Shown piece by piece: positions 10,611 through 42,228 of a stretch of DNA of 48,176 nt; within the stretch, counting starts at the first letter, position 1; each line of letters opens with the position of its first letter. Position numbers and translations under genes: made by a program. The notes below the pieces were generated by a model, which saw only the letters and a program-made list of their open reading frames with translations, searched no databases and was not told the DNA's origin. Source of the stretch: Candidatus Yanofskybacteria bacterium (GTDB lineage: Bacteria; Patescibacteriota; Minisyncoccia; 2-02-FULL-40-12; GWA2-44-9); NCBI GenBank assembly GCA_016181145.1, contig JACOZW010000022.1:1-48176 (forward strand). Direction: 5' to 3'.

Positions 10611-10681
10611 AATTAGGATATAATAGTTGATTATTTTAATTTTTACAACCCCTAGTTTTTGTTGTATGATTTTTATTGTCA

Positions 10682-12013
10682 ATGCATAAGCTAAAAGAAA
10701 AAATAGATTATTATCGCCAGCACTGGTTTGTTAGGAGCGTGGCTACTCTTCAGGCCGGAAGTTTTGCCGGGACCTTGGTTCAGGCTCTTGCCGGCGTGTT
10801 TTTAGCACGATTGCTCCAGCCGGAGCTGTTTGGTGTTTATTCGCTCGCTTTTGGTTTGGCTAGTCTTGGTGGTTTGCTTTTAGGAGCAGGAACGCAGGAA
10901 GCTGTCTCGACTCTTTTAGGATCGGCCTATGCAAAACAAAACAGCGAAGAAGTGAAAGAGGCACTGGCATTTTTAATAAAGCTCACTCTTTACGCCGGAT
11001 TGATAACGATATTTCTTCTTTTATTTTTTCCGATGGTATCAAATTACTTCTATGGCGATCCGGCGATCGGGTGGTATGCTGGCATAGTTGTTCTGGCGGT
11101 ATTTTTGTCTAGCTCTTTCAGTGCAGTTGTCCAACTGGCCCTTCAGGTTTCCGGCCGGATAAAAATATTGACCTTAATTATTTTTGGTGACCAATTTTTA
11201 CGTTTTAGCATCTCACTACTGTTTGTCTTTTTAGGCCTGGGAGTTCTGGGTGCTGTAGCAGGTCAGTTTGTGGGGGCGGCAGTTATATTCGTTATATCGC
11301 TTTTTATCTGGGAGCGTTTACGGAGACAACATCCGATATTTCCATCGCTAAGAGGCCTAATAAGCGACATTAGGGAGGTCTCGGTACAAAAATATTTTGG
11401 TTTCAGTTTTTGGGTGGCTGTGGATAGAAATATAGGCAATCTATACATGGCTTTGCCTGTGGTTCTAACCGGTATTTATGTTTCTACCGGCGAGGTGTCT
11501 TTTTTTAAACTGGCCTTTGGCTTTGTTAACTTAGCATTAAGTCTTCTTGGTCCGATTTCAATGTTGCTTAATATTGAATTTCCGAAAATGCAGATTGAAG
11601 ATTCGGCAAAGTTTGCCAGGAATTTTGTTAGAGTTTCGGTTTACGGAGTTTTTCTTTCTTTGGGATTGACTTTGGCTGCTGTTATTGCCGCTCCTTTTGT
11701 TTTCAGGATTTTATATGGTGATAGTTTCTTGCCCAGCATAAAGTATATATTCGGACTATTTATTTACGGGGCTTTGTACGGGATAGGGGTCGGATTAGGA
11801 CCGATGTGGCGGGCCATTAATAAAGTTAAAGTTTCCATAGCCATCAATCTGATTATTTTGGGAGTAGGTATCCCGCTAGGCCTTTTGTTGATAAAGGGCT
11901 TTGGTTCGTGGGGCTCGGTAATAATGGTGACCTTATTGTTTACCGTGTCTCATTTTATATCGTTCATTTATCTGATGAGAGATTTAAAATTGAAATATCA
12001 AAATGGAAAATGA
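10682..12013 (+). CDS. Oligosaccharide flippase (Wzx/MOP family)
   Basis: About 12 TM segments, [13 protein letters not shown] signature, glycan-locus context. Confidence 0.85.
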
Positions 12014-35466: not shown

Positions 35467-35949
35467 ATGAAAAAAATTCTTATGGTTACGTCGATACTGG
35501 CAATTGTTGCCGGAATCGTTATGGTCGGGGGAGGAGTATGGGGAATTATATTTACATATAAAAATGTAGCTCAGGAGAAAATTACAACGCCGGCAGATGC
35601 TTCAATACCGAAAGCTCCGGTACTAGGTCCGCTTACGCTCAAGGCTCAGGCGGATATTATCAGGAAGCATACGCTCGAGACCACTGATGGTAAGGTTTTT
35701 GCTGAAATGCCGCGCCAGATTCAGAAGTTGGATGTTGACGGAAAGCCCGTTTTAGATGCTGACGGCAAACCGGTGATGACAGCAAATACCGCTCGTGATA
35801 TGTGGATAACAGCTACAACTCTAAATAACGCACTTAATTTAGGAATTATGGCGTATGCATTATCTAGTTTCATATTATTCTTAGGATTGGTGTTTGTCTG
35901 GATCGGAGCAGTTTTTTGCGTTCTAGGTAAACAAAAACCCGCTCTTTAA
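35467..35949 (+). CDS. Hypothetical membrane protein
   Basis: N- and C-terminal TM segments; GPLTLKAQADIIRKH core. Confidence 0.75.
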   Translation: MKKILMVTSILAIVAGIVMVGGGVWGIIFTYKNVAQEKITTPADASIPKAPVLGPLTLKAQADIIRKHTLETTDGKVFAEMPRQIQKLDVDGKPVLDADGKPVMTANTARDMWITATTLNNALNLGIMAYALSSFILFLGLVFVWIGAVFCVLGKQKPAL

Positions 35950-35958
35950 TGAGCGGGT
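35933..35958 (-). terminator. Array terminator, copy 3
   Basis: ACCCGCTC-ATTAAA-GAGCGGGT-TTTT on the minus strand. Confidence 0.85.
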
Positions 35959-35964
35959 GATGGG

Positions 35965-36582
35965 CTATATTCTCTCTTGTCCTGGTAGATAGGAATCCTC
36001 GTCACTGAATGTCGGGCCTCGCCAGGCGTCGATGATGGAGCCAAATTCGGACCATGCACCGCCCTTTATTATATCAACAGTAAGAAAACATATTACGCCA
36101 TCGTTGCCTAACTGGTAATTACCCGCATCATCAATTGTTTGGCTGGCATTTAAAAGAAGCCTCTCTTTTTTATCGGCACCGGCTGCTTCTAGTATATTGA
36201 CTATTTTTCTGAGGACTCTTGGGGGAATGGGCCCGCATTCTTTTAGGTTTCTCCATCTCCATGAAATATGGCCATATTTTCTAGATAGGTTTTCTGCCTG
36301 TTTGTTCAAAATAGTGTTGGTTGCTGTATGGTTATAACGACGACAACCTGTCCGTTTTAGGATTTGTAACATCCATAGCCCCGATAAAGATTTATTGCTG
36401 TGCCCTGATTGCTCGGCAAGTTTTATGTATTCATCAAGCTCCTGATCCGTTATTTTTAAGACTATGTCTTCTGGTTCTGGCACTACAAGCTCACCATCAT
36501 CCCTGATCAAATCCGCCGAGGGCGCCTGAACTGTTGCCAGGGCAGTTGTTTGCTTGCCCCGTAGTTTTGAAAGAACTCCCAT
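35965..36582 (-). CDS. Array paralog g6 (leader A, SYLPGQERI tail), unknown function
   Basis: Start set at MGVLSK by homology and SD GAGAGG; APSADLIR ... PIPPR ... ICFL ... IIDAWRGPTFSDE. Confidence 0.9.
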   Translation of the reverse strand: MGVLSKLRGKQTTALATVQAPSADLIRDDGELVVPEPEDIVLKITDQELDEYIKLAEQSGHSNKSLSGLWMLQILKRTGCRRYNHTATNTILNKQAENLSRKYGHISWRWRNLKECGPIPPRVLRKIVNILEAAGADKKERLLLNASQTIDDAGNYQLGNDGVICFLTVDIIKGGAWSEFGSIIDAWRGPTFSDEDSYLPGQERI

Positions 36583-36601
36583 CTTGGTTCCTCTCTTAAG
36601 C

Positions 36602-36648
36602 ATTCAATCTGGCCAGATTCTATAGTATAAATGCTGAATTGTCAAGGT
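36602..36648 (-). promoter_or_regulatory. Array promoter, copy 3, with 14-bp palindrome
   Basis: TTGACA-17-TAGAAT; AATCTGGCCAGATT at 36606-36619. Confidence 0.8.
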
Positions 36649-36698
36649 AGATATGACACACCCCGATTTCGCAGGAGGATAGCTATTAAACAGAGTTC

Positions 36699-36725
36699 AA
36701 AAAACCCGCTCTTTAATAGGCGGGT
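36699..36725 (-). terminator. Array terminator, copy 2
   Basis: ACCCGCCT-ATTAAA-GAGCGGGT-TTTTT on the minus strand. Confidence 0.8.
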
Positions 36726-36731
36726 GATGGA

Positions 36732-37382
36732 CTATATTCTCTCTTGTCCTGGTAGATAGGACTCCTCGTCACTGAAGGTCGGACCACGCCAGGCGTCGAT
36801 GATGAATCCATCTCGATCACTTCTGCTATCCTGTGTAAGTCCTAATCCAAGAAGAAATGTTAATGTCTTATGGGCCGTATAGGCGCCGACTGATTTATCA
36901 TATTCCCTCTCCAATATCCCTGATATAGTAAATTGGAGATCATCTGGGTGGGTAAAGTTGCTTCTAATCTCGTTTATTTTGTTGACAATCCTTGGCGGGA
37001 TAGGAGGACCGTAAGATGTATAATCGCACGTATCAGTTCTGCATATATAAATAGATCTATTACGATTTTTTTTACGAAGGTATTTTTGGGTTTTATGTTC
37101 AAAATCTGAAAGTTTCTCTTTGCCATACTGCTTACAGCCCAGCTTTATTAAGAGGTGACGAAGCCTTTCTTTTTTTAGTCCAAAGCTTTGGTAGTCCGCA
37201 TTATTTATAAGCTCCATATATCTTGCCAGTTCTTCGGGACTATGTTGGCATTCTATTTCTACCATTTTTGGTAATTCTGGTTCTGTATCATCCCTGATCA
37301 AATCCGCCGACGGCGCTTTAACCAATGCCGAATCCTGTGTTTGCGACTGGCTTTTTCTTCGAAACAATGTCATTACACTCAT
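36732..37382 (-). CDS. Array paralog g5 (leader B, SYLPGQERI tail)
   Basis: MSVMTLFRRKS...APSADLIR...IIDAWRGPTFSDEE. Confidence 0.9.
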   Translation of the reverse strand: MSVMTLFRRKSQSQTQDSALVKAPSADLIRDDTEPELPKMVEIECQHSPEELARYMELINNADYQSFGLKKERLRHLLIKLGCKQYGKEKLSDFEHKTQKYLRKKNRNRSIYICRTDTCDYTSYGPPIPPRIVNKINEIRSNFTHPDDLQFTISGILEREYDKSVGAYTAHKTLTFLLGLGLTQDSRSDRDGFIIDAWRGPTFSDEESYLPGQERI

Positions 37383-37432
37383 ATCTTCGCCTCCTCATCG
37401 CTGAAGGTCGGACCACGCCAGGCGTCGATGAT
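37287..37432. repeat. 146-bp coupling junction J1, copy 3
   Basis: Same length as and similar to 37895-38040 and 39353-39498. Confidence 0.9.
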
Positions 37433-37990
37433 GACCCTCCATGGCTTTGGAGGATAGCCACTATTCCCATCTAATTTCAGAAAGCAAATTTCTTGTCTTT
37501 CTTTCTTTTCTTTCTGCGGAACTTCTTGAATGTCGGTTATCCAGAAAAAGACTGTTTTTTCTTGGATGCCTTCAATATTGTCTTTTATTTTGTTTAGCTT
37601 TTTCAGCACACCGAGCGGAAGTGGCTTTTTATATTCATCGAGACGCCTCCAATCCCATATCAGATCTCTCCTGGTTGTTTTTCCTAAGCACATTGCCTGT
37701 CTATCCATAAAGGACCTAACCTCTTCTGGGTCATAATAACAAAAATTGCCCAGTTTTAACTTCCATAGCATTTCTTCTCTAAAGATTATGGGGGGAAAAT
37801 ATTCTAAATATTTTGCAAGGATAGTATATTCACTAAATTTATCCATCGGAATTTCACATTGTATTTCTCTTGGTTCGGGTATGACCAACTCATTATCTCC
37901 CCTTATCAAATCCGCCGAGGGCGCTTTAACCAATGCCGAATCCTGCGTTTGCAACCTGCTCTTTCTTCGAAACAATGTCATTACACTCAT
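37379..37990 (-). CDS. Array paralog g4 (leader B, AKI tail)
   Basis: Same terminal motifs; ATGA overlaps at both ends. Confidence 0.9.
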   Translation of the reverse strand: MSVMTLFRRKSRLQTQDSALVKAPSADLIRGDNELVIPEPREIQCEIPMDKFSEYTILAKYLEYFPPIIFREEMLWKLKLGNFCYYDPEEVRSFMDRQAMCLGKTTRRDLIWDWRRLDEYKKPLPLGVLKKLNKIKDNIEGIQEKTVFFWITDIQEVPQKEKKERQEICFLKLDGNSGYPPKPWRVIIDAWRGPTFSDEEAKI

Positions 37991-38040
37991 ATCTTCGCCT
38001 CCTCATCACTGAAGGTCGGACCACGCCAGGCGTCGATGAT
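37895..38040. repeat. 146-bp coupling junction J1, copy 2
   Basis: Direct repeat spanning the tail of g3 and the leader of g4. Confidence 0.9.
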
Positions 38041-38622
38041 GAGAGATTCTTCTTCGGGTGCGTCACTGCTTACGGCGACTTTCAGGAAACATATTTCGGT
38101 TCCGCGTTTCATGGGGATAACTCTTAATTTATTATTTCTATTTTCAGTATTTACTTTTCCATCATAGCGGTAAGTTACCCATACGATGTCTGAAACAAAA
38201 AATAGTAAATTTCTATCCATGGTAGCTACAGTCTTTACTACTCTATATGGCAGGGGATGTCGGTATTCTTTAATATCGACCCATTGCCACCAAAGATCAT
38301 CTCCGAGATGAAGGGTGCGGTGTGCGTACTCTATGTATCGCTTCATGAAACTGTCTACTTCTGATTTAGTATAAACCCTAAAATTCTCATATTTTAAGCG
38401 GTGTAGTAACTTTTCTCTACTGACAGCTACTTCGGGTAATCTATAACAGAAATTGGTTGTCTGGGTATAAGTGGTTAATTTTTTTGAATCCATCTCGGGT
38501 TCTATCTCTCTTGGTTCTGGGCACCATAACTCATTATCATCCCTGATCAAATCCGCCGAGGGTGCTTGAACTGTTGCCAGGGCAGTTGTTTGCTTGCCCC
38601 GTAGTTTTGAAAGAACTCCCAT
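37987..38622 (-). CDS. Array paralog g3 (leader A, AKI tail)
   Basis: MGVLSKLRGKQ...IIDAWRGPTFSDEEAKI. Confidence 0.9.
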   Translation of the reverse strand: MGVLSKLRGKQTTALATVQAPSADLIRDDNELWCPEPREIEPEMDSKKLTTYTQTTNFCYRLPEVAVSREKLLHRLKYENFRVYTKSEVDSFMKRYIEYAHRTLHLGDDLWWQWVDIKEYRHPLPYRVVKTVATMDRNLLFFVSDIVWVTYRYDGKVNTENRNNKLRVIPMKRGTEICFLKVAVSSDAPEEESLIIDAWRGPTFSDEEAKI

Positions 38623-38641
38623 CTCAGTTCCTCTCTAGAGT

Positions 38642-38688
38642 ATTCAATCTGGCCAGATTTTATAGTATAAATGCTGAATTGTCAAGGT
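38642..38688 (-). promoter_or_regulatory. Array promoter, copy 2, with 14-bp palindrome
   Basis: TTGACA-17-TAAAAT; AATCTGGCCAGATT at 38646-38659. Confidence 0.8.
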
Positions 38689-38737
38689 AAGCGAACTGGT
38701 AGATATTGACACACCCCAATTCCGTTAAGCAGAGTTC

Positions 38738-38764
38738 AAAAAACCCGCTCTTTAATGAGCGGGT
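38738..38764 (-). terminator. Array terminator, copy 1
   Basis: ACCCGCTC-ATTAAA-GAGCGGGT-TTTTT on the minus strand. Confidence 0.85.
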
Positions 38765-38770
38765 GATGGA

Positions 38771-39448
38771 CTATACTCTCTCTTGTCCTGGTAGATAGGA
38801 CTCCTCATCACTGAATGTCGGGCCTCGCCAGGCGTCGATGATGAGCGTCCAGCGCTTTTCATAACCAGCACAGCTACCATAAGTTGCAAATAACTCTATC
38901 CCCAAAAAGCAAATCAATGATTTATCATCAACGATTACACGATATACGCCTGGGTGGGATATATCTGAGATTGTAAATCTTCCATAAGGATCGCAGTTCC
39001 CCCCAAAGTAACAATAGTCAGATTCTCTTTGCAATTGTTTTACCAATTTCATAATTCGGGCCGGGATTGGCTCTTCGTATTTAGATATGCCGGTTATTGG
39101 CCGCCATAGCACTTGGAGATTGCCCCGTTGAGCGGTCTTTTCATAGTAACTCGTCTGTTTTTCGAGCAGGGTGTTAACTTTAGCACCTGGGTATAGACGA
39201 ATATTGTTATTCACTAGAATCCGAATAACGTCTTGATGTATAAAGCTGACGTTATCGAATTTTCCGCGGCCACCAATCAAGTCTTGATATGCATTAAATT
39301 CTTCCGTATCCATGTGTTTTGGAACATAGGTTTCGGGAAGGACCAACTCATTATCTCCCCTAATCAAATCCGCTGATGGCGCTTGAATCAAGGCTAAACT
39401 CTGTGATTGCGGCTGGCTCTTTCTTCGAAACAATGTCATCGCGCTCAT
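38771..39448 (-). CDS. Array paralog g2 (leader B, SYLPGQERV tail)
   Basis: MSAMTLFRRKS...APSADLIR...IIDAWRGPTFSDEE. Confidence 0.9.
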   Translation of the reverse strand: MSAMTLFRRKSQPQSQSLALIQAPSADLIRGDNELVLPETYVPKHMDTEEFNAYQDLIGGRGKFDNVSFIHQDVIRILVNNNIRLYPGAKVNTLLEKQTSYYEKTAQRGNLQVLWRPITGISKYEEPIPARIMKLVKQLQRESDYCYFGGNCDPYGRFTISDISHPGVYRVIVDDKSLICFLGIELFATYGSCAGYEKRWTLIIDAWRGPTFSDEESYLPGQERV

Positions 39449-39498
39449 ATCTTCGCCTCCTCATCACTGAATGTCGGGCCTCGCCAGGCGTCGATGAT
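39353..39498. repeat. 146-bp coupling junction J1, copy 1
   Basis: Direct repeat spanning the tail of g1 and the leader of g2. Confidence 0.85.
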
Positions 39499-40113
39499 GA
39501 GAGATTCTGCAATAGGTGTACTTTCATTTGCAGTAACCCTAAGAAAACATATTTCCGTTTTTCGTTTCATGGGAATAATTTGCCATTGCTGAATGCGCTG
39601 ACCCGTATTTTCACAGTTATAGTGTGTGCGGGAAGTTACCCAAACAATATCTGAAATAAAAAATCTAAAATAGTTTCGCGAATACCCTTCTGCATTAGCG
39701 TGGGATATTTTTTTTACATAGTCGATTACTCTGGGAGGAAGGGGATGGCTGTATTCTCGGAGATTGATCCATTCCCACCAAAGATCGTCACCCAGCTTAA
39801 GGGTTCTAGATGCATATTTTATACATTGTCGCATGCAATTAGCCACCCCTGAGTGATTATAAGTTCTTAGATTCAGGGTCTTTAGGAGATGCAATAATTT
39901 TTCTCTGGCTATGACTGAGGTTTGGGCGTCAAGTGCTAAGTCATCGATCGCTCGGACATATTCGGCTAACTTCTCCGGTGCAATCTCTAGCTCTATCTCT
40001 TTCGGTTCTGGGCACCATAACTCATTATCATCTCTGATCAAATCTGCTGACGGCGCCTGAACTGTTGCCAGGGCAGTTGTTTGCTTGCCCCGTAGTTTTG
40101 AAAGAACTCCCAT
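39445..40113 (-). CDS. Array paralog g1 (leader A, AKI tail)
   Basis: MGVLSKLRGKQ...IIDAWRGPTFSDEEAKI. Confidence 0.9.
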   Translation of the reverse strand: MGVLSKLRGKQTTALATVQAPSADLIRDDNELWCPEPKEIELEIAPEKLAEYVRAIDDLALDAQTSVIAREKLLHLLKTLNLRTYNHSGVANCMRQCIKYASRTLKLGDDLWWEWINLREYSHPLPPRVIDYVKKISHANAEGYSRNYFRFFISDIVWVTSRTHYNCENTGQRIQQWQIIPMKRKTEICFLRVTANESTPIAESLIIDAWRGPTFSDEEAKI

Positions 40114-40132
40114 CTCAGCTCCTCTCCAGAGT

Positions 40133-40179
40133 ATTCAATCTGGCCAGATTTTATAGTATAAATGCTGAATTGTCAAGGT
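40133..40179 (-). promoter_or_regulatory. Array promoter, copy 1, with 14-bp palindrome
   Basis: TTGACA-17-TAAAAT; AATCTGGCCAGATT at 40137-40150. Confidence 0.8.
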
Positions 40180-40184
40180 GGGTA

Positions 40185-40213
40185 TTGACAAAATAAATTA
40201 AATATACTATTAT
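40185..40213 (+). promoter_or_regulatory. Divergent sigma70-like promoter
   Basis: TTGACA-17-TATTAT, back to back with the array promoter. Confidence 0.7.
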
Positions 40214-40253
40214 CTTGTCGCGTGACCGAACATGTAGTTTCGAGGAGGAACAG

Positions 40254-40550
40254 ATGGCGGACAGAACTTTGACAAAAAAAGACGTACTTACCTTCCTGAA
40301 TCTGGGGAGGAAAATTGCTGTTTCTGGTGCCGGAGCAGTATTGGATACGGCAAAGTCAAAAATTGCCGATTTGATCGACTCGGACGAGGCTTTGCAGAGG
40401 CGGGTTGAAGCTCAGGTCCAAGCTCTACTTAGAGCCGGTTTTACTGAACTAGAAGCCCGCAAAGCTGTTTTTGACCGTATGAGGACTCGTATAGATAATG
40501 CCTTTCAAAAAAGCGCCAATCCTATCGGCGATAATATCGTAAAGAAGTAA
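40254..40550 (+). CDS. Small helical hypothetical protein
   Basis: SD GAGGAGG before ATG 40254. Confidence 0.75.
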   Translation: MADRTLTKKDVLTFLNLGRKIAVSGAGAVLDTAKSKIADLIDSDEALQRRVEAQVQALLRAGFTELEARKAVFDRMRTRIDNAFQKSANPIGDNIVKK

Positions 40551-40567: not shown

Positions 40568-41548
40568 ATGGCCACTCAGAGTCTCACTCGTCGTGCGGGA
40601 GCAGGCAGTTCTATGTCGCGCCGCTCAGATATGAAGTTGTTTATCGATCGGGCGGTCCAGGATGGTGTCAGAGACATCAAGGAAAGTGCTGAAGCGCTGA
40701 AGAGCTTAGATGGCGACTTGCGTCGGGAGCTGGATGTCCCATTAGATAGAACTAAGAGCATGATGGCCAAGGTATTAAATATGGTTATTCCCAAGCGTTT
40801 TTATTCGGATTTGCCGAACAGCCTTGTTAGATACATGGGTGAAGCACAGGATGTTATTATTCAGATAGGCTCAGATAAGAGGCATCACTGTAATAATATA
40901 CAAATAGGCCTCCGAAATTTGTACGATGCCGCGAATGCCAAAAAGGAGCAATTGGCAGAATTAAGAGCTACAATAGAAACGGCTCAAAGAGAAAATTGGA
41001 ATGCGAGACAGCTTCAGGAATACATGACTAAAAGTGTCGGGATAGAGGTCTTTAGGGAGATAAGTGATCTTCTCGACGAAGAGTTTGGTATTCTTGGAGA
41101 AGAAGAGCAGGAGGCCAGAAAGCAGCAGCTTCTTGATCAGCTACATAATGCTACTGTTGGCGGCGAAAGATTTATGAAGTTGATGGCCGGTGTTGTATCA
41201 GCGGGCTTATCGGTTTTCTCAGCAGGGGTTGCAAGCTATTTCGAATACGAGCTATTTGAGCACGATACCATTCAATTGAGGGAAGCGGCCAAGGCATTTG
41301 TCGACGTTAATAAGGGGATATATGCCGGCCGGGCGGCTATTACTGGTACGATAACAACTTCTATTGATGGTATTCGCAAGGCTGTCAAAATGGCCGAATT
41401 GTACAATAAGTGCTCTCTTTTTTCAGATGATTTCTTGGAAGTTTTGGATGAGGCGGAAGAGCTGGTTAGCAAGGATATCAAGTCTCTTGACAACCCCTCG
41501 AGCAAACGGAAAGAATTACCCGTTATCGATGTTGTCCCTGTAAGTTAG
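40568..41548 (+). CDS. Coiled-coil/helical hypothetical protein
   Basis: SD AAGGAG; 326 aa, helical composition. Confidence 0.8.
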   Translation: MATQSLTRRAGAGSSMSRRSDMKLFIDRAVQDGVRDIKESAEALKSLDGDLRRELDVPLDRTKSMMAKVLNMVIPKRFYSDLPNSLVRYMGEAQDVIIQIGSDKRHHCNNIQIGLRNLYDAANAKKEQLAELRATIETAQRENWNARQLQEYMTKSVGIEVFREISDLLDEEFGILGEEEQEARKQQLLDQLHNATVGGERFMKLMAGVVSAGLSVFSAGVASYFEYELFEHDTIQLREAAKAFVDVNKGIYAGRAAITGTITTSIDGIRKAVKMAELYNKCSLFSDDFLEVLDEAEELVSKDIKSLDNPSSKRKELPVIDVVPVS

Positions 41549-41646: not shown

Positions 41647-42228
41647 ATGGGGATTATCGGTCGGATCTTGAGGCAGACTAGGGTTAGTTACAATGCGCCG
41701 GTGATACTAACTTTTACGGTTATGGCATCAGCTGTTTTTGCTCTGTTTAGCATTACGGGAACTTCGTTTTATCATTTGTTTTCTGCTCCTACGGAGTTTA
41801 GGCTTTTTTCTCCGATCACATATTTCCGTTTTGTATCTCATATCTTGGGGCATCAAAGCATGCAGCATTTATCGGGGAATTTTATGATCATATTGTTGAT
41901 CGGACCGTTGGTAGAGGAAAAATACTCATCATTTTCACTGTTGTTGATGATAGTAATTACCGCTTTAGCGACAGGAATTCTTAATATAATACTATTTTCT
42001 ACCAGCTTAATGGGTGCAAGTGGTATCGTCTTTATGCTTATCATTTTGAGCTCACTAACTAATTTTAGAAGGAGAGAGATTCCATTGACATTTTTGCTGG
42101 TCATAACTATTTTCTTGGGTAATGAGGTGATAAGCAGTTTTAACAGCGACAATATATCGCAGTTTGCCCATATCTTGGGCGGTATATGCGGTGCTGGATT
42201 CGGATTATTTTTCGTGAATAAAAGATAA
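41647..42228 (+). CDS. Rhomboid-family intramembrane serine protease
   Basis: HILGH...HLSGNF, GPLVEE, catalytic GASG, FAHILGG. Confidence 0.9.
   Translation: MGIIGRILRQTRVSYNAPVILTFTVMASAVFALFSITGTSFYHLFSAPTEFRLFSPITYFRFVSHILGHQSMQHLSGNFMIILLIGPLVEEKYSSFSLLLMIVITALATGILNIILFSTSLMGASGIVFMLIILSSLTNFRRREIPLTFLLVITIFLGNEVISSFNSDNISQFAHILGGICGAGFGLFFVNKR

Follow-up and report, generated by a model that had tools for sequence, protein, structure and literature searches.

The window analysed here is a stretch of 48,176 nt from a Candidatus Yanofskybacteria bacterium. It holds a tandem array of six paralogs with diverged middles and similar ends. Such an array could be a device for shuffling gene cassettes or the product of ordinary recombination in an expanded gene family, and which of the two applies here is the question addressed below. 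The host is a tiny groundwater bacterium. Its genome is a metagenome bin of 68 contigs and is 92% complete.

Six paralogs and their junction modules

Six minus-strand ORFs were found as described in the initial annotation, arranged in three promoter-to-terminator units (Table 1). These are the only family copies found in the whole 0.95-Mb genome. No copy is truncated: each ORF has its start codon and RBS, and three promoters between them serve all six. On alignment of the six paralogs A-P-S-A-D-L-I-R, with a D two residues later, was identical in all six, and I-I-D-A-W-R-G-P-T-F-S-D-E was likewise invariant. Core identity to gA ranged from 33 to 60%. Each gene can be read as a core between two protein-conserved blocks, APSADLI... 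(N block) and IIDAWRGPTFSDEE (C block). The homologous start of gF is the ATG at 36582, which gives a protein of 205 aa; the ATG at 36603 falls where the other two leader A copies have 5'UTR. The GC content of the array is that of its flanks and the flanking synteny is kept in relatives, so the locus is chromosomal rather than part of a mobile element.

Table 1. Coordinates of the array genes, the junction modules and the neighbouring gene pair in the window.
Feature	Position	Strand	Description
gF	35965..36603	-	212 aa; unit 3 sole gene; clade F, leader A, tail SYLPGQERI
gE	36732..37382	-	216 aa; unit 2 last gene; clade E, leader B, tail SYLPGQERI
gD	37379..37990	-	203 aa; unit 2 middle gene; clade D, leader B, tail AKI
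gC	37987..38622	-	211 aa; unit 2 first gene; clade 1, leader A, tail AKI
gB	38771..39448	-	225 aa; unit 1 last gene; clade B, leader B, tail SYLPGQERV
gA	39445..40113	-	222 aa; unit 1 first gene; clade 1, leader A, tail AKI with ATGA stop/start overlap
Promoter-leader A module, copy 1 (repeat D1)	39964..40179	-	promoter TTGACA-17-TAAAAT 40176-40148; palindrome AATCTGGCCAGATT (14 bp) 40137-40150; RBS GAGAGGAG; 58-nt stretch 40058-40115
Promoter-leader A module, copy 2	38473..38688	-	promoter 38685-38657; palindrome 38646-38659; 58-nt stretch 38567-38624
Promoter-leader A module, copy 3	36433..36648	-	promoter 36645-36617; palindrome 36606-36619; 58-nt stretch 36527-36584
Internal junction J1 (repeat D2), gA/gB	39332..39508	-	C block, GAGGAGG Shine-Dalgarno, ATGA overlap, leader B
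Internal junction J1, gC/gD	37874..38050	-	repeat D2
Internal junction J1, gD/gE	37266..37442	-	repeat D2
Terminal module (repeat D3) after gB	38725..38844	-	C block, SYLPGQER tail, terminator hairpin 38743-38764
Terminal module after gE	36686..36805	-	terminator copy 36704-36725, one stem mismatch
Terminal module after gF	35919..36038	-	terminator 35937-35958
111-aa helical protein gene	40215..40550	+	divergent from array; own 11/12 promoter 40185-40213
326-aa coiled-coil protein gene	40568..41548	+	second of conserved divergent pair

The 58-nt stretch of leader A is identical in all three copies and can be extended by no base on either side. The flanks had been described as almost unchanged, which holds for these 58 nt but not elsewhere, where the junction modules are 80-93% identical. 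Three repeat families, each present in three copies, fit the two junction types proposed earlier, J1 within units and J2 between them. These are D1 (216 nt, 80-90% identity), D2 (177 nt, 84-86%) and D3 (120 nt, 83-93%). The J2 stop-to-start distance, given earlier as 149-150 bp, was measured as 148 nt (38623-38770) and 149 nt (36583-36731). The junction repeats are far above chance; motifs of 14 nt and 22 nt occurred three times each compared to none in 100 shuffles. Scanning located the three minus-strand promoter-like sites, all scoring 11/12, and the terminators after gB and gF. A third terminator copy follows gE. At 9/9 internal junctions a GAGGAGG made of SDEE codons lies 8 nt 5' of the overlapping ATGA of the next gene.

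Divergence, homogenization and reassortment

Sequence divergence along the genes is strongly uneven, as had been expected. Codon identity at positions encoding the same residue was low in the core (254/534, 48%) and high at the N end (238/335, 71%) and C end (184/224, 82%). The sister cores gA and gC (clade 1, support 93/91) had 41/70 identical codons in the core compared to 26/32 in the leader. Between the two, identity was 93-100% over the promoter-leader block, which runs from position -67 to approximately +100 with the ATG as reference. The edges of the block were abrupt, with 20-nt bins falling from 18-20 identical positions to 5-10 at approximately -67 and +100.

The junction sequences were more alike within genomes than between them. 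Leader B identity was 0.79 within genomes (five pairs) and 0.54 between, with corresponding values of 0.89 and 0.77 for the N block and 0.94 and 0.90 for the C block. The two J1 copies of L010 were identical across the leader B stretch (1.0). Leader A DNA is identical in its three copies in the window genome and differs between genomes. The marks of concerted evolution were thus all found, namely identity higher within than between genomes, sharp mosaic boundaries and the presence of RecA (match E 3.8e-136, contig C48). Promoter, leader and terminator are homogenized inside genomes. Synonymous codons of the C block, and of part of the N block, are also preserved between genomes. This goes beyond gene conversion alone, and a further DNA- or RNA-level constraint acts on those blocks.

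The core tree contained seven supported clades. Five of these contain window genes and each of the five also has members from elsewhere. The cores are diverged as the initial annotation stated, but this reflects the age of the paralog types, which have relatives elsewhere, and not hypervariability. Window cores were 48-61% identical to their best matches in other genomes, and the neighbouring 326-aa gene was similar at 42-46%. Exceptional diversifying selection, which had been suggested for the family, is therefore unsupported.

Leader and tail type track operon position and not core clade. Leader A was present in 9/9 first genes and leader B in 9/9 later genes, and clades B, E and F were found with both leaders and in both positions. 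On the core tree (40 classed rows) leader class switches no fewer than 11 times; shuffled labels gave 13.3 ± 1.6 switches, with 11 or fewer in 39/300 shuffles. The family is rare and patchy. Array content was compared across related genomes, which have one to three genes in varying order. The uneven divergence, within-genome likeness, position-linked leaders and variable arrays argue that cores have been added, deleted and re-ordered via the constant ends, in agreement with the recombination first proposed.

The array is probably an expanded gene family that evolved by ordinary recombination of the RecA type, through gene conversion and unequal crossing-over. It would be a lineage-specific expansion of an unannotated Patescibacteria family of approximately 210 aa, with six copies compared to one to three in relatives. 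The layout seen in relatives is one short operon divergent from a conserved two-gene module (111 aa and 326 aa). Three modules, each specific to a position, surround the conserved blocks. Module 1, 5' of the first gene, comprises promoter, 14-bp palindrome, RBS and leader A. Module 2, which is intergenic, comprises the Shine-Dalgarno from SDEE codons, the ATGA stop/start overlap and leader B, and module 3, 3' of the last gene, the extended tail and terminator. Within the conserved blocks, RecA-dependent conversion and unequal crossing-over would keep these modules similar in each genome. Through the same recombination, cores would have been duplicated, lost and re-ordered in the course of evolution. 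With exchange in the conserved blocks any core would end up in frame with expression signals. Whole-unit duplication would have given the three identically promoted operons, which are probably co-regulated.

Known variation systems and alternative explanations

The babA/babB/babC genes of Helicobacter pylori and the opa genes of Neisseria are paralogs with constant ends and variable middles that undergo interlocus gene conversion. Their chimeras and copy-number changes arise by RecA-dependent recombination. The array resembles them in its near-identical 5' and 3' segments, divergent centre, chimeras, copy-number change and homogenization greater within than between genomes. Unlike bab and opa, it has tandem copies joined by translational coupling within operons, and its proteins have no signal peptide or outer-membrane features. 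Its ends are specific to operon position, no function is known for the family, and synonymous sites in part of the constant end are also kept between genomes.

The conserved ends could instead reflect constraint with no recombination, through purifying selection on the motifs, on the Shine-Dalgarno and start context and on a coupling RNA hairpin. The SDEE-encoded Shine-Dalgarno is consistent with this, as is the C block identity, which is nearly as high between genomes as within them. Of the 28 pairs predicted by RNAalifold, 12 joined the C block's 5' portion to the Shine-Dalgarno and start region. However, the hairpin was without covariation (term -0.09) and its folding energy was no better than that of shuffles (z -1.97 to +0.48, eight junctions). 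Last genes and single-gene loci, which have no cistron downstream, showed the same degree of C block conservation. The non-coding promoter, 5'UTR and terminator copies, together with the leaders, are far more similar within a genome than between genomes, and such likeness is not predicted by selection on function. As the block edges are also sharp and leaders reassort with cores, constraint alone is considered an unlikely explanation.

A proposal given equally little weight is that TCGGCGGATTTGAT on the 5' side and the approximately 42-nt ATCATCGACGCCTGGCG...GAGGAG on the 3' side of every gene are kept for their own sake as recombination joints. With the junction modules they would then make the array a RecA-driven, integrase-free 'operon cassette' system.

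No sign of programmed shuffling was found. Under programmed, high-frequency cassette shuffling the constant blocks would be dedicated joints, at which the cell population keeps re-dealing cores among expressed positions and so varies a surface-interaction or anti-phage repertoire. The modular ends that bring any core in frame with expression signals are in keeping with this, as are the synonymous sites of the blocks, conserved across genomes beyond protein needs, and the varying array composition of related genomes. Contigs from the same metagenomes that match a stretch of J1 exactly also continue into sequence absent from the window genome. Against it, all six genes are complete and promoter-served with no silent donor cassette, and their core types recur across genomes at the identities given above. 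Profile searches of the 92%-complete genome gave no match to RVT_1 or Resolvase. The sole Phage_integrase (tyrosine recombinase) match was on contig C66, outside the window, in line with the earlier statement that the window holds no recombinase or reverse transcriptase. The cassette-shuffling system proposed with that statement is unsupported. The junction repeats from a direct-repeat scan were all in one orientation on one strand and lay partly or wholly in coding sequence. Independent data came from four runs of a single study in the form of Logan contigs, which hide rare variants; the sole joint among the matches listed was one 56-nt back-step, found at J1 in one contig. Programmed shuffling is regarded as quite improbable.

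Specific systems of this kind also fit poorly. Neisseria pilE/pilS, Borrelia vlsE and Anaplasma msp2/p44 are antigenic variation systems with an expression site and silent cassettes. As in these, the conserved flanks of the array could act as homology arms for segmental conversion. Unlike them, the array has no silent or truncated donors: all six ORFs are intact and have start codons, and promoters and terminators number three each. Its core types are not strain-specific. Like integron cassettes, the units form a single-orientation array expressed from shared upstream signals, but the junctions are coding sequence, the cassettes are mutually homologous, no IntI adjoins the array and the direct-repeat scan gave no attC-like imperfect inverted repeat. 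Diversity-generating retroelements likewise have a variable protein region beside a conserved 3' element. In the array the differences between cores include indels and affect all bases along approximately 500 nt, no repeat spans the cores in the direct-repeat scan, and there is no template repeat and no reverse transcriptase found in the genome. A shufflon or invertase switch would have inverted repeats and a serine or Rci-type recombinase; it is unsupported, given the lack of a Resolvase match and the common orientation of the junction repeats from the direct-repeat scan. By analogy of protein logic alone the array may also be comparable to tandem flagellin and archaellin arrays, where conserved termini mediate export and assembly. 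Both have tandem paralogs with conserved termini and a variable central domain, but the array proteins have no sequence similarity to these and no hydrophobic N-terminal helix, and export and assembly genes are absent near the array.

An assembly artefact, in which short reads across the 58-216-nt repeats joined the cores of different strains or collapsed or mis-ordered units, is very unlikely: the genome is a 68-contig bin, the Logan contigs of all four runs break at the conserved ends with no core-to-core join among the 32 matches listed, and other family members occur in the same samples, but each core was recovered in at least 3/4 runs with 0-3 differing letters among the matches listed, the same modular architecture occurs on contigs of 29-180 kb that were assembled independently for other samples, the repeats are below typical read-pair length and flank synteny fits relatives on both sides.

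Protein family, neighbours and significance

The family could not be assigned, as the initial annotation had also concluded. None of the six proteins matched a Pfam family at E ≤ 1, PHROGs and NCBIfam gave only matches with E ≥ 0.01 and PADLOC gave no match for the family. PDB profile searches gave no significant match, with best E values of 0.11 (A2) and 0.0015 (A3; domain 0.023). The C block is probably part of the fold of a wider un-named superfamily ending in WDEPxF, in which one of 83 members had a weak DUF3793 match. A stored ESM Atlas model had a pLDDT of 0.33.

The 111-aa gene was divergent from the array in 6/6 distinct loci extending upstream, and the 326-aa gene was present in 4/4 loci extending further past it. 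The 326-aa protein could be placed in no family. Homologs of the 326-aa gene or the module were present in 9/60 relatives, and the family was not found in any of eight loci fetched around the module, which therefore exists apart from the family as well. Conserved adjacency suggests that the family is possibly linked to the 111/326-aa module. Our guess is that the proteins are binding or specificity subunits, presumably non-enzymatic. Their shared ends may engage a common partner, possibly the neighbouring module.

Patescibacteria are genome-reduced, DNA-scavenging bacteria with tiny genomes and few paralogs. A patchy family in six copies, associated with a conserved gene pair, is therefore likely to serve in interaction or conflict, for example in attachment to a host or in defence against phages. 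The synonymous conservation of the 42-nt coding block across genomes is a concrete and testable anomaly. An RNA element or a binding site may lie behind it, or else GC-biased repair in a recombination hot zone. If the conserved blocks are kept as joints, Patescibacteria could use them to gain, lose and re-deal specificity domains acting together with the 111/326-aa module. This would also account for the fixed synonymous sites of the joints across genera compared to the randomized codons at conserved residues of the cores. Under ordinary recombination in an expanded family, the reading preferred here, the locus would be a clean natural case of operon junctions (promoter-leader, stop/start-overlap and tail-terminator) as exchangeable modules, where recombination in short conserved coding blocks can re-order genes and leave their expression intact.

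Organization of the array and its expression signals

The six minus-strand ORFs described in the initial annotation, here designated gA to gF, were all present in the window. The motifs A-P-S-A-D-L-I-R near the start (N block) and I-I-D-A-W-R-G-P-T-F-S-D-E near the end (C block) were invariant in alignment A1 of the six proteins. The other copies were 33-60% identical to gA in the same alignment. The diverged middle is referred to as the core. The N-terminus of the first gene of a unit is termed leader A, that of later genes leader B, and the internal gene-gene junction J1. Exact identity of the three 58-nt stretches in leader A was verified and ended abruptly on either side. The junction flanks had been called almost unchanged; this held for the 58 nt, which are identical, but not outside them, where identity was 80-93%. 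Direct-repeat search resolved three modules, each in three copies.

Promoters scoring 11/12 in a consensus scan (TTGACA-17-TAAAAT or TAGAAT) precede gA, gC and gF. The divergent 111-aa gene next to the array has its own 11/12 promoter. Two terminators were found by consensus scan and the third copy has one stem mismatch. The three promoters and three terminator copies therefore define three transcription units, gA-gB, gC-gD-gE and gF, with promoter and terminator the same in each. All three array promoters have a perfect 14-bp palindrome, AATCTGGCCAGATT, immediately downstream of the -10 box. It could serve as the operator of a dimeric regulator or form a hairpin at the 5' end. It was partly conserved in related loci.

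An additional in-frame ATG was seen in gF, 21 nt 5' of the homologous start (window 36582-36603). It arose by substitutions where the other two copies have 5'UTR and lies within a few bases of the expected transcript start. On the plus strand, inside the 58-nt stretch, a terminator-like hairpin was followed by a T-rich run, antisense to the genes. The sense strand of the hairpin bases gives a 5-bp hairpin approximately 25-45 nt into leader A.

Features of the array, its neighbours and related loci (window coordinates unless a locus is named)
Feature	Location	Strand	Details
gA	39445-40113	minus	ORF
gB	38771-39448	minus	ORF
gC	37987-38622	minus	ORF
gD	37379-37990	minus	ORF
gE	36732-37382	minus	ORF
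gF	35965-36603	minus	ORF
Promoter-leader A module			216 nt, three copies, 80-90% identity (direct-repeat search)
Internal junction J1 module			177 nt, three copies, 84-86% identity (direct-repeat search)
Tail-terminator module			120 nt, three copies, 83-93% identity (direct-repeat search)
Palindrome AATCTGGCCAGATT	36606-36619, 38646-38659, 40137-40150		0 matches in 100 shuffles
Antisense terminator-like hairpin	36540-36559, 38580-38599, 40071-40090	plus	
111-aa ORF	40215-40550		divergent from array
326-aa ORF	40568-41548		after 111-aa ORF
Distant seventh paralog	L007 7765-8403, L010 7338-8030, L012 7809-8426	minus	
Insert and junction relic	L008 11778-11979, L012 11166-11367, L013 1537-1738, L015 447-648		

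Family distribution and neighbouring genes

None of the six proteins matched Pfam at E≤1 or PADLOC, and PHROGs and NCBIfam gave only matches at E≥0.01. Searching PDB with the family profile gave a best E of 0.11. Across Pfam, PHROGs, PADLOC, NCBIfam and PDB, searched with single proteins and profiles, nothing usable was returned for the six proteins, the superfamily profile A3 or the 111/326-aa pair. A match of A3 to PDB chain 9rd5_H (E 0.0015, domain i-E 0.023, approximately 55 residues) was judged too weak. This chain is described as the SPbeta-like phage repressor SroF, with an integrase-like fold (10.1101/2025.11.27.690993). The stored ESM Atlas model of gA had a pLDDT of 0.33 and its nearest clusters scored ≤0.85, giving no assignment. 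Literature searches on Patescibacteria paralog arrays and CPR unknown families listed nothing on this family.

The source genome is a 92%-complete bin of 951,685 bases in 68 contigs. It holds only six copies of the family, all in the window. Sixty relatives from its genus, family and order gave no family member. Among 5.8 billion proteins, a word-indexed search retrieved 44, comprising the six window proteins and 38 others, all from metagenomes or MAGs. The sole name among the 44 was "hypothetical protein" of Candidatus Yanofskybacteria. When 1.84 billion representatives were searched exhaustively with a profile, 136 matches reached E≤1e-3 and only 23 of them E≤1e-10. The approximately 110 weak matches (approximately 180-350 aa) align to the core and end in ...PDPFL.V...WDEPxF, and a profile of 83 of these proteins recovered the six window proteins at 5e-15 to 5e-24. 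The C-terminal IIDAW-R-G-P-T-F block therefore belongs to the fold shared by a wider, un-named superfamily, rather than standing alone as a "junction". The superfamily is rare, being present in two of 400 sampled genomes of the phylum, one of which has a singleton without the 111/326-aa module. A peptide-pattern scan of the genome collection matched 16 stretches, none confirmed as family. The 17-nt C-block pattern, too unspecific for family search, matched at least 120 stretches in the same collection, mostly from GC-rich genomes; 80 of the 120 were listed, and no family member was among those fetched. One stretch in the viral contig collection was not confirmed. Neither gA nor the 326-aa protein had a tblastn match among phages.

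Ten related metagenome loci were retrieved; over the array, L008 and L009 do not differ. These loci carry arrays of one to three family genes. A 111-aa homolog divergently adjoins the array in all six distinct loci reaching upstream (L007, L008, L010, L012, L013 and L014), followed by a 326-aa homolog in those extending further (L007, L008, L010 and L012). Other neighbours common to the window and the loci were 43-86% identical at the amino acid level. The GC content of the array equals that of its flanks. The shared neighbours and matching GC therefore place the array at a chromosomal and syntenic locus. Homologs of the 326-aa protein were present in nine of the 60 relatives, and the family and superfamily were absent from all eight loci fetched around them. 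The 111/326-aa pair is the older and more widespread module, to which the array has been added patchily. Classification of the 326-aa protein as Bacillus_HBL/HlyE-like was rejected, since the ESM Atlas feature scores were 0.83, below the lead threshold, and the orthologs have no clearly hydrophobic hairpin.

L007, L010 and L012 have a seventh, distant paralog downstream of the pair. It has the N motif ELIRDD and C motif FIIDSWGK and matched the family profile at E 1e-12 to 1e-16. It is missing from the window, which has a rhomboid protease gene (41647-42228) and two membrane ORFs in its place. In the relatives (loci L027-L034) the genes around the 111/326-aa module include several small paralogous families (130-270 aa) with no Pfam match, and many of these proteins end in KK.LG..F.P...L. 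Their N-termini share L[IV]K.TP.E.L (Gibbs sampler, 13.8 bits). This was rejected as an N-terminal targeting motif common to the array, as a PSSM built from these small proteins ranked the six array proteins only 154th-563rd of 966 ORFs.

Core lineages, leader types and recombination

A core-region ML tree of the 44 proteins had seven supported clades. The window cores fell in clade 1 twice (gA and gC as sisters, 93/91), B (gB), D (gD), E (gE) and F (gF), and genes from elsewhere were present in each of these five clades. Diversifying selection had been proposed for the family. No exceptional level was demonstrated: the cores were 48-61% identical to their best matches in other genomes, similar to the neighbouring 326-aa protein at 42-46% between genomes. 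The clades common to other genomes and the ordinary between-genome identity point to ancient paralogy and not hypervariability as the origin of the differences among the six copies. Codon identity at identical residues of neighbouring control genes was 0.42-0.55, so that synonymous sites are near saturation between genomes.

Leaders and tails followed operon position. Leader A (M-G/R-x-L-x-K/Q-L...) was carried by all nine unit-first genes of the window and related loci, and leader B (M-S/K-x-M/L-T/A-L-F-R/K...), whose ATG overlaps the preceding stop as ATGA, by all nine later genes with the N-terminus present. All nine internal genes terminate in ...EEA(K/R)I-TGA, and an extended tail followed by a terminator was found in 10 of 12 last genes. 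Cores of clades B, E and F were seen at first as well as later positions, in each case with the leader expected for that position. Leader class changes at least 11 times on the core tree (40 classifiable proteins). Label shuffles gave 13.3 ± 1.6 changes, with 11 or fewer in 39 of 300. With changes near the shuffled level, leader type is almost independent of core ancestry.

Array orders across genomes were 1-B, 1-F-E, 1-X-E, B-(broken E2-like gene), and B or E alone. The leader and tail types of three further proteins, recorded on contigs of one length, would imply the order D-1-E, compared with 1-D-E in the middle unit of the window. The second array gene of L012 was split into two overlapping ORFs (10633-10869 and 10842-11252) and is probably a frameshifted pseudogene. 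The first-gene core of L012 was identical to the protein named Candidatus Yanofskybacteria. In last array genes elsewhere, an approximately 20-nt palindromic insert after GAGGAG brings the stop codon. Behind it lies a remnant of the internal junction (GCGAAGATATAG/GG), which would fit an origin of terminal tails from internal junctions.

Within the window the same codon was used at identical residues in 254/534 cases in cores, 238/335 in N ends and 184/224 in C ends. Between gA and gC, identical codons numbered 41/70 in the core and 26/32 in the leader. The block common to the three promoter-leader copies has abrupt edges at approximately -67 and +100 relative to the ATG. Leader B DNA identity over nine internal junctions from five genomes was 0.79 within genomes (five pairs; 1.0 in L010) versus 0.54 between, and leader A DNA also differs between genomes. 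Concerted evolution through gene conversion and unequal crossing-over classically leaves this signature. The source genome encodes RecA. The earlier proposal of cores being added, deleted and swapped through recombination in the constant ends was supported on an evolutionary time scale. The dedicated cassette-shuffling system proposed with it was not supported: neither RVT_1 nor Resolvase was found in the 92%-complete genome, and its only tyrosine recombinase is on another contig than the window. Rare shuffling events are conceivable.

The stretch was present in four groundwater-metagenome runs of one study (word share 0.40-0.86; Logan contigs only). All six cores were found in the run contigs, with 0-3 differing letters on the pieces listed. 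These contigs end at conserved blocks, and none of the 32 pieces listed, of 112, joins two cores. Contigs sharing J1 (39455-39500) in three of the four runs (X1-X3) continue into sequence absent from the genome, so the samples also contain other family members that have this junction DNA.

Codon conservation and likely function

C-block similarity was almost as high between genomes (0.90) as within (0.94). Codons were compared among 17 full-length genes from eight loci. The conserved core residues Y, L, P, R, F and I had chance-level codon identity between loci. The N-block S-A-D-L codons (TCG GCG GAT TTG) were the same across genomes, as were nearly all C-block codons (ATC ATC GAC GCC TGG CGA GGC CCG ACN TTC AGT GAY GAG GAG). 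Mean between-locus codon identity of the C block was 0.70, against 0.38 predicted from codon usage. Control windows (1,229, each of 13 invariant columns, taken from five gene families that neighbour the array in these genomes) had a mean of 0.49 ± 0.08, and only 0.6% reached 0.70. GC3 was 0.74 in the C block, 0.37 in the cores and 0.40 genome-wide.

Part of the C-block codon conservation arises because GAGGAGG is the Shine-Dalgarno sequence of the next cistron. Possible causes of the constraint are GC-biased repair in a conversion hot zone, GC-biased gene conversion being known in bacteria, or an RNA- or DNA-binding factor. At J1, RNAalifold predicted pairing between TCAT.CATC..CGCCT in the block and AGGCG..GAT.ATGA, which covers the 3' part of the Shine-Dalgarno and the start codon. 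This predicted hairpin has no covariation and ordinary folding energies (z -1.97 to +0.48), and the block is just as conserved in last genes and single-gene loci, all of which speaks against it. Antisense ORFs across J1, seen by eye, cannot explain the constraint because they share the wobble position with the sense frame. The C block was found nowhere else in the genome and its oligomers had no Chi-like genome-wide enrichment. Rfam gave no match at E≤1 and there were no tRNAs in the window.

The six proteins had no signal peptide, no membrane segment and no invariant catalytic-type residues. The invariant core positions in A1 were Y, L, Y, P, P and L. Judged from gene arrangement, the array proteins are co-translated through stop/start overlaps, and their genes always adjoin the 111/326-aa module. 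In two distant superfamily proteins, P0125 and P0157 (336 and 347 aa), the domain is preceded by an N-terminal membrane helix and a long S/T/P-rich linker, suggesting that it can act at the cell surface. Our best guess is that the array proteins are a non-enzymatic binding or specificity domain, with the shared ends contacting a common partner.

Assignment to an expression-site/silent-cassette system, integron, DGR or shufflon was rejected on the defining tests of each. In the bab genes of H. pylori and the opa genes of Neisseria, interlocus gene conversion maintains multigene families whose ends are constant and whose middles vary. This locus differs from them in being tandem and operonic, in its position-specific junction modules, in its conservation of synonymous sites across genomes, and in encoding a cytoplasmic-looking, un-named Patescibacteria family. 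Such a multigene family is nevertheless the closest known kind.
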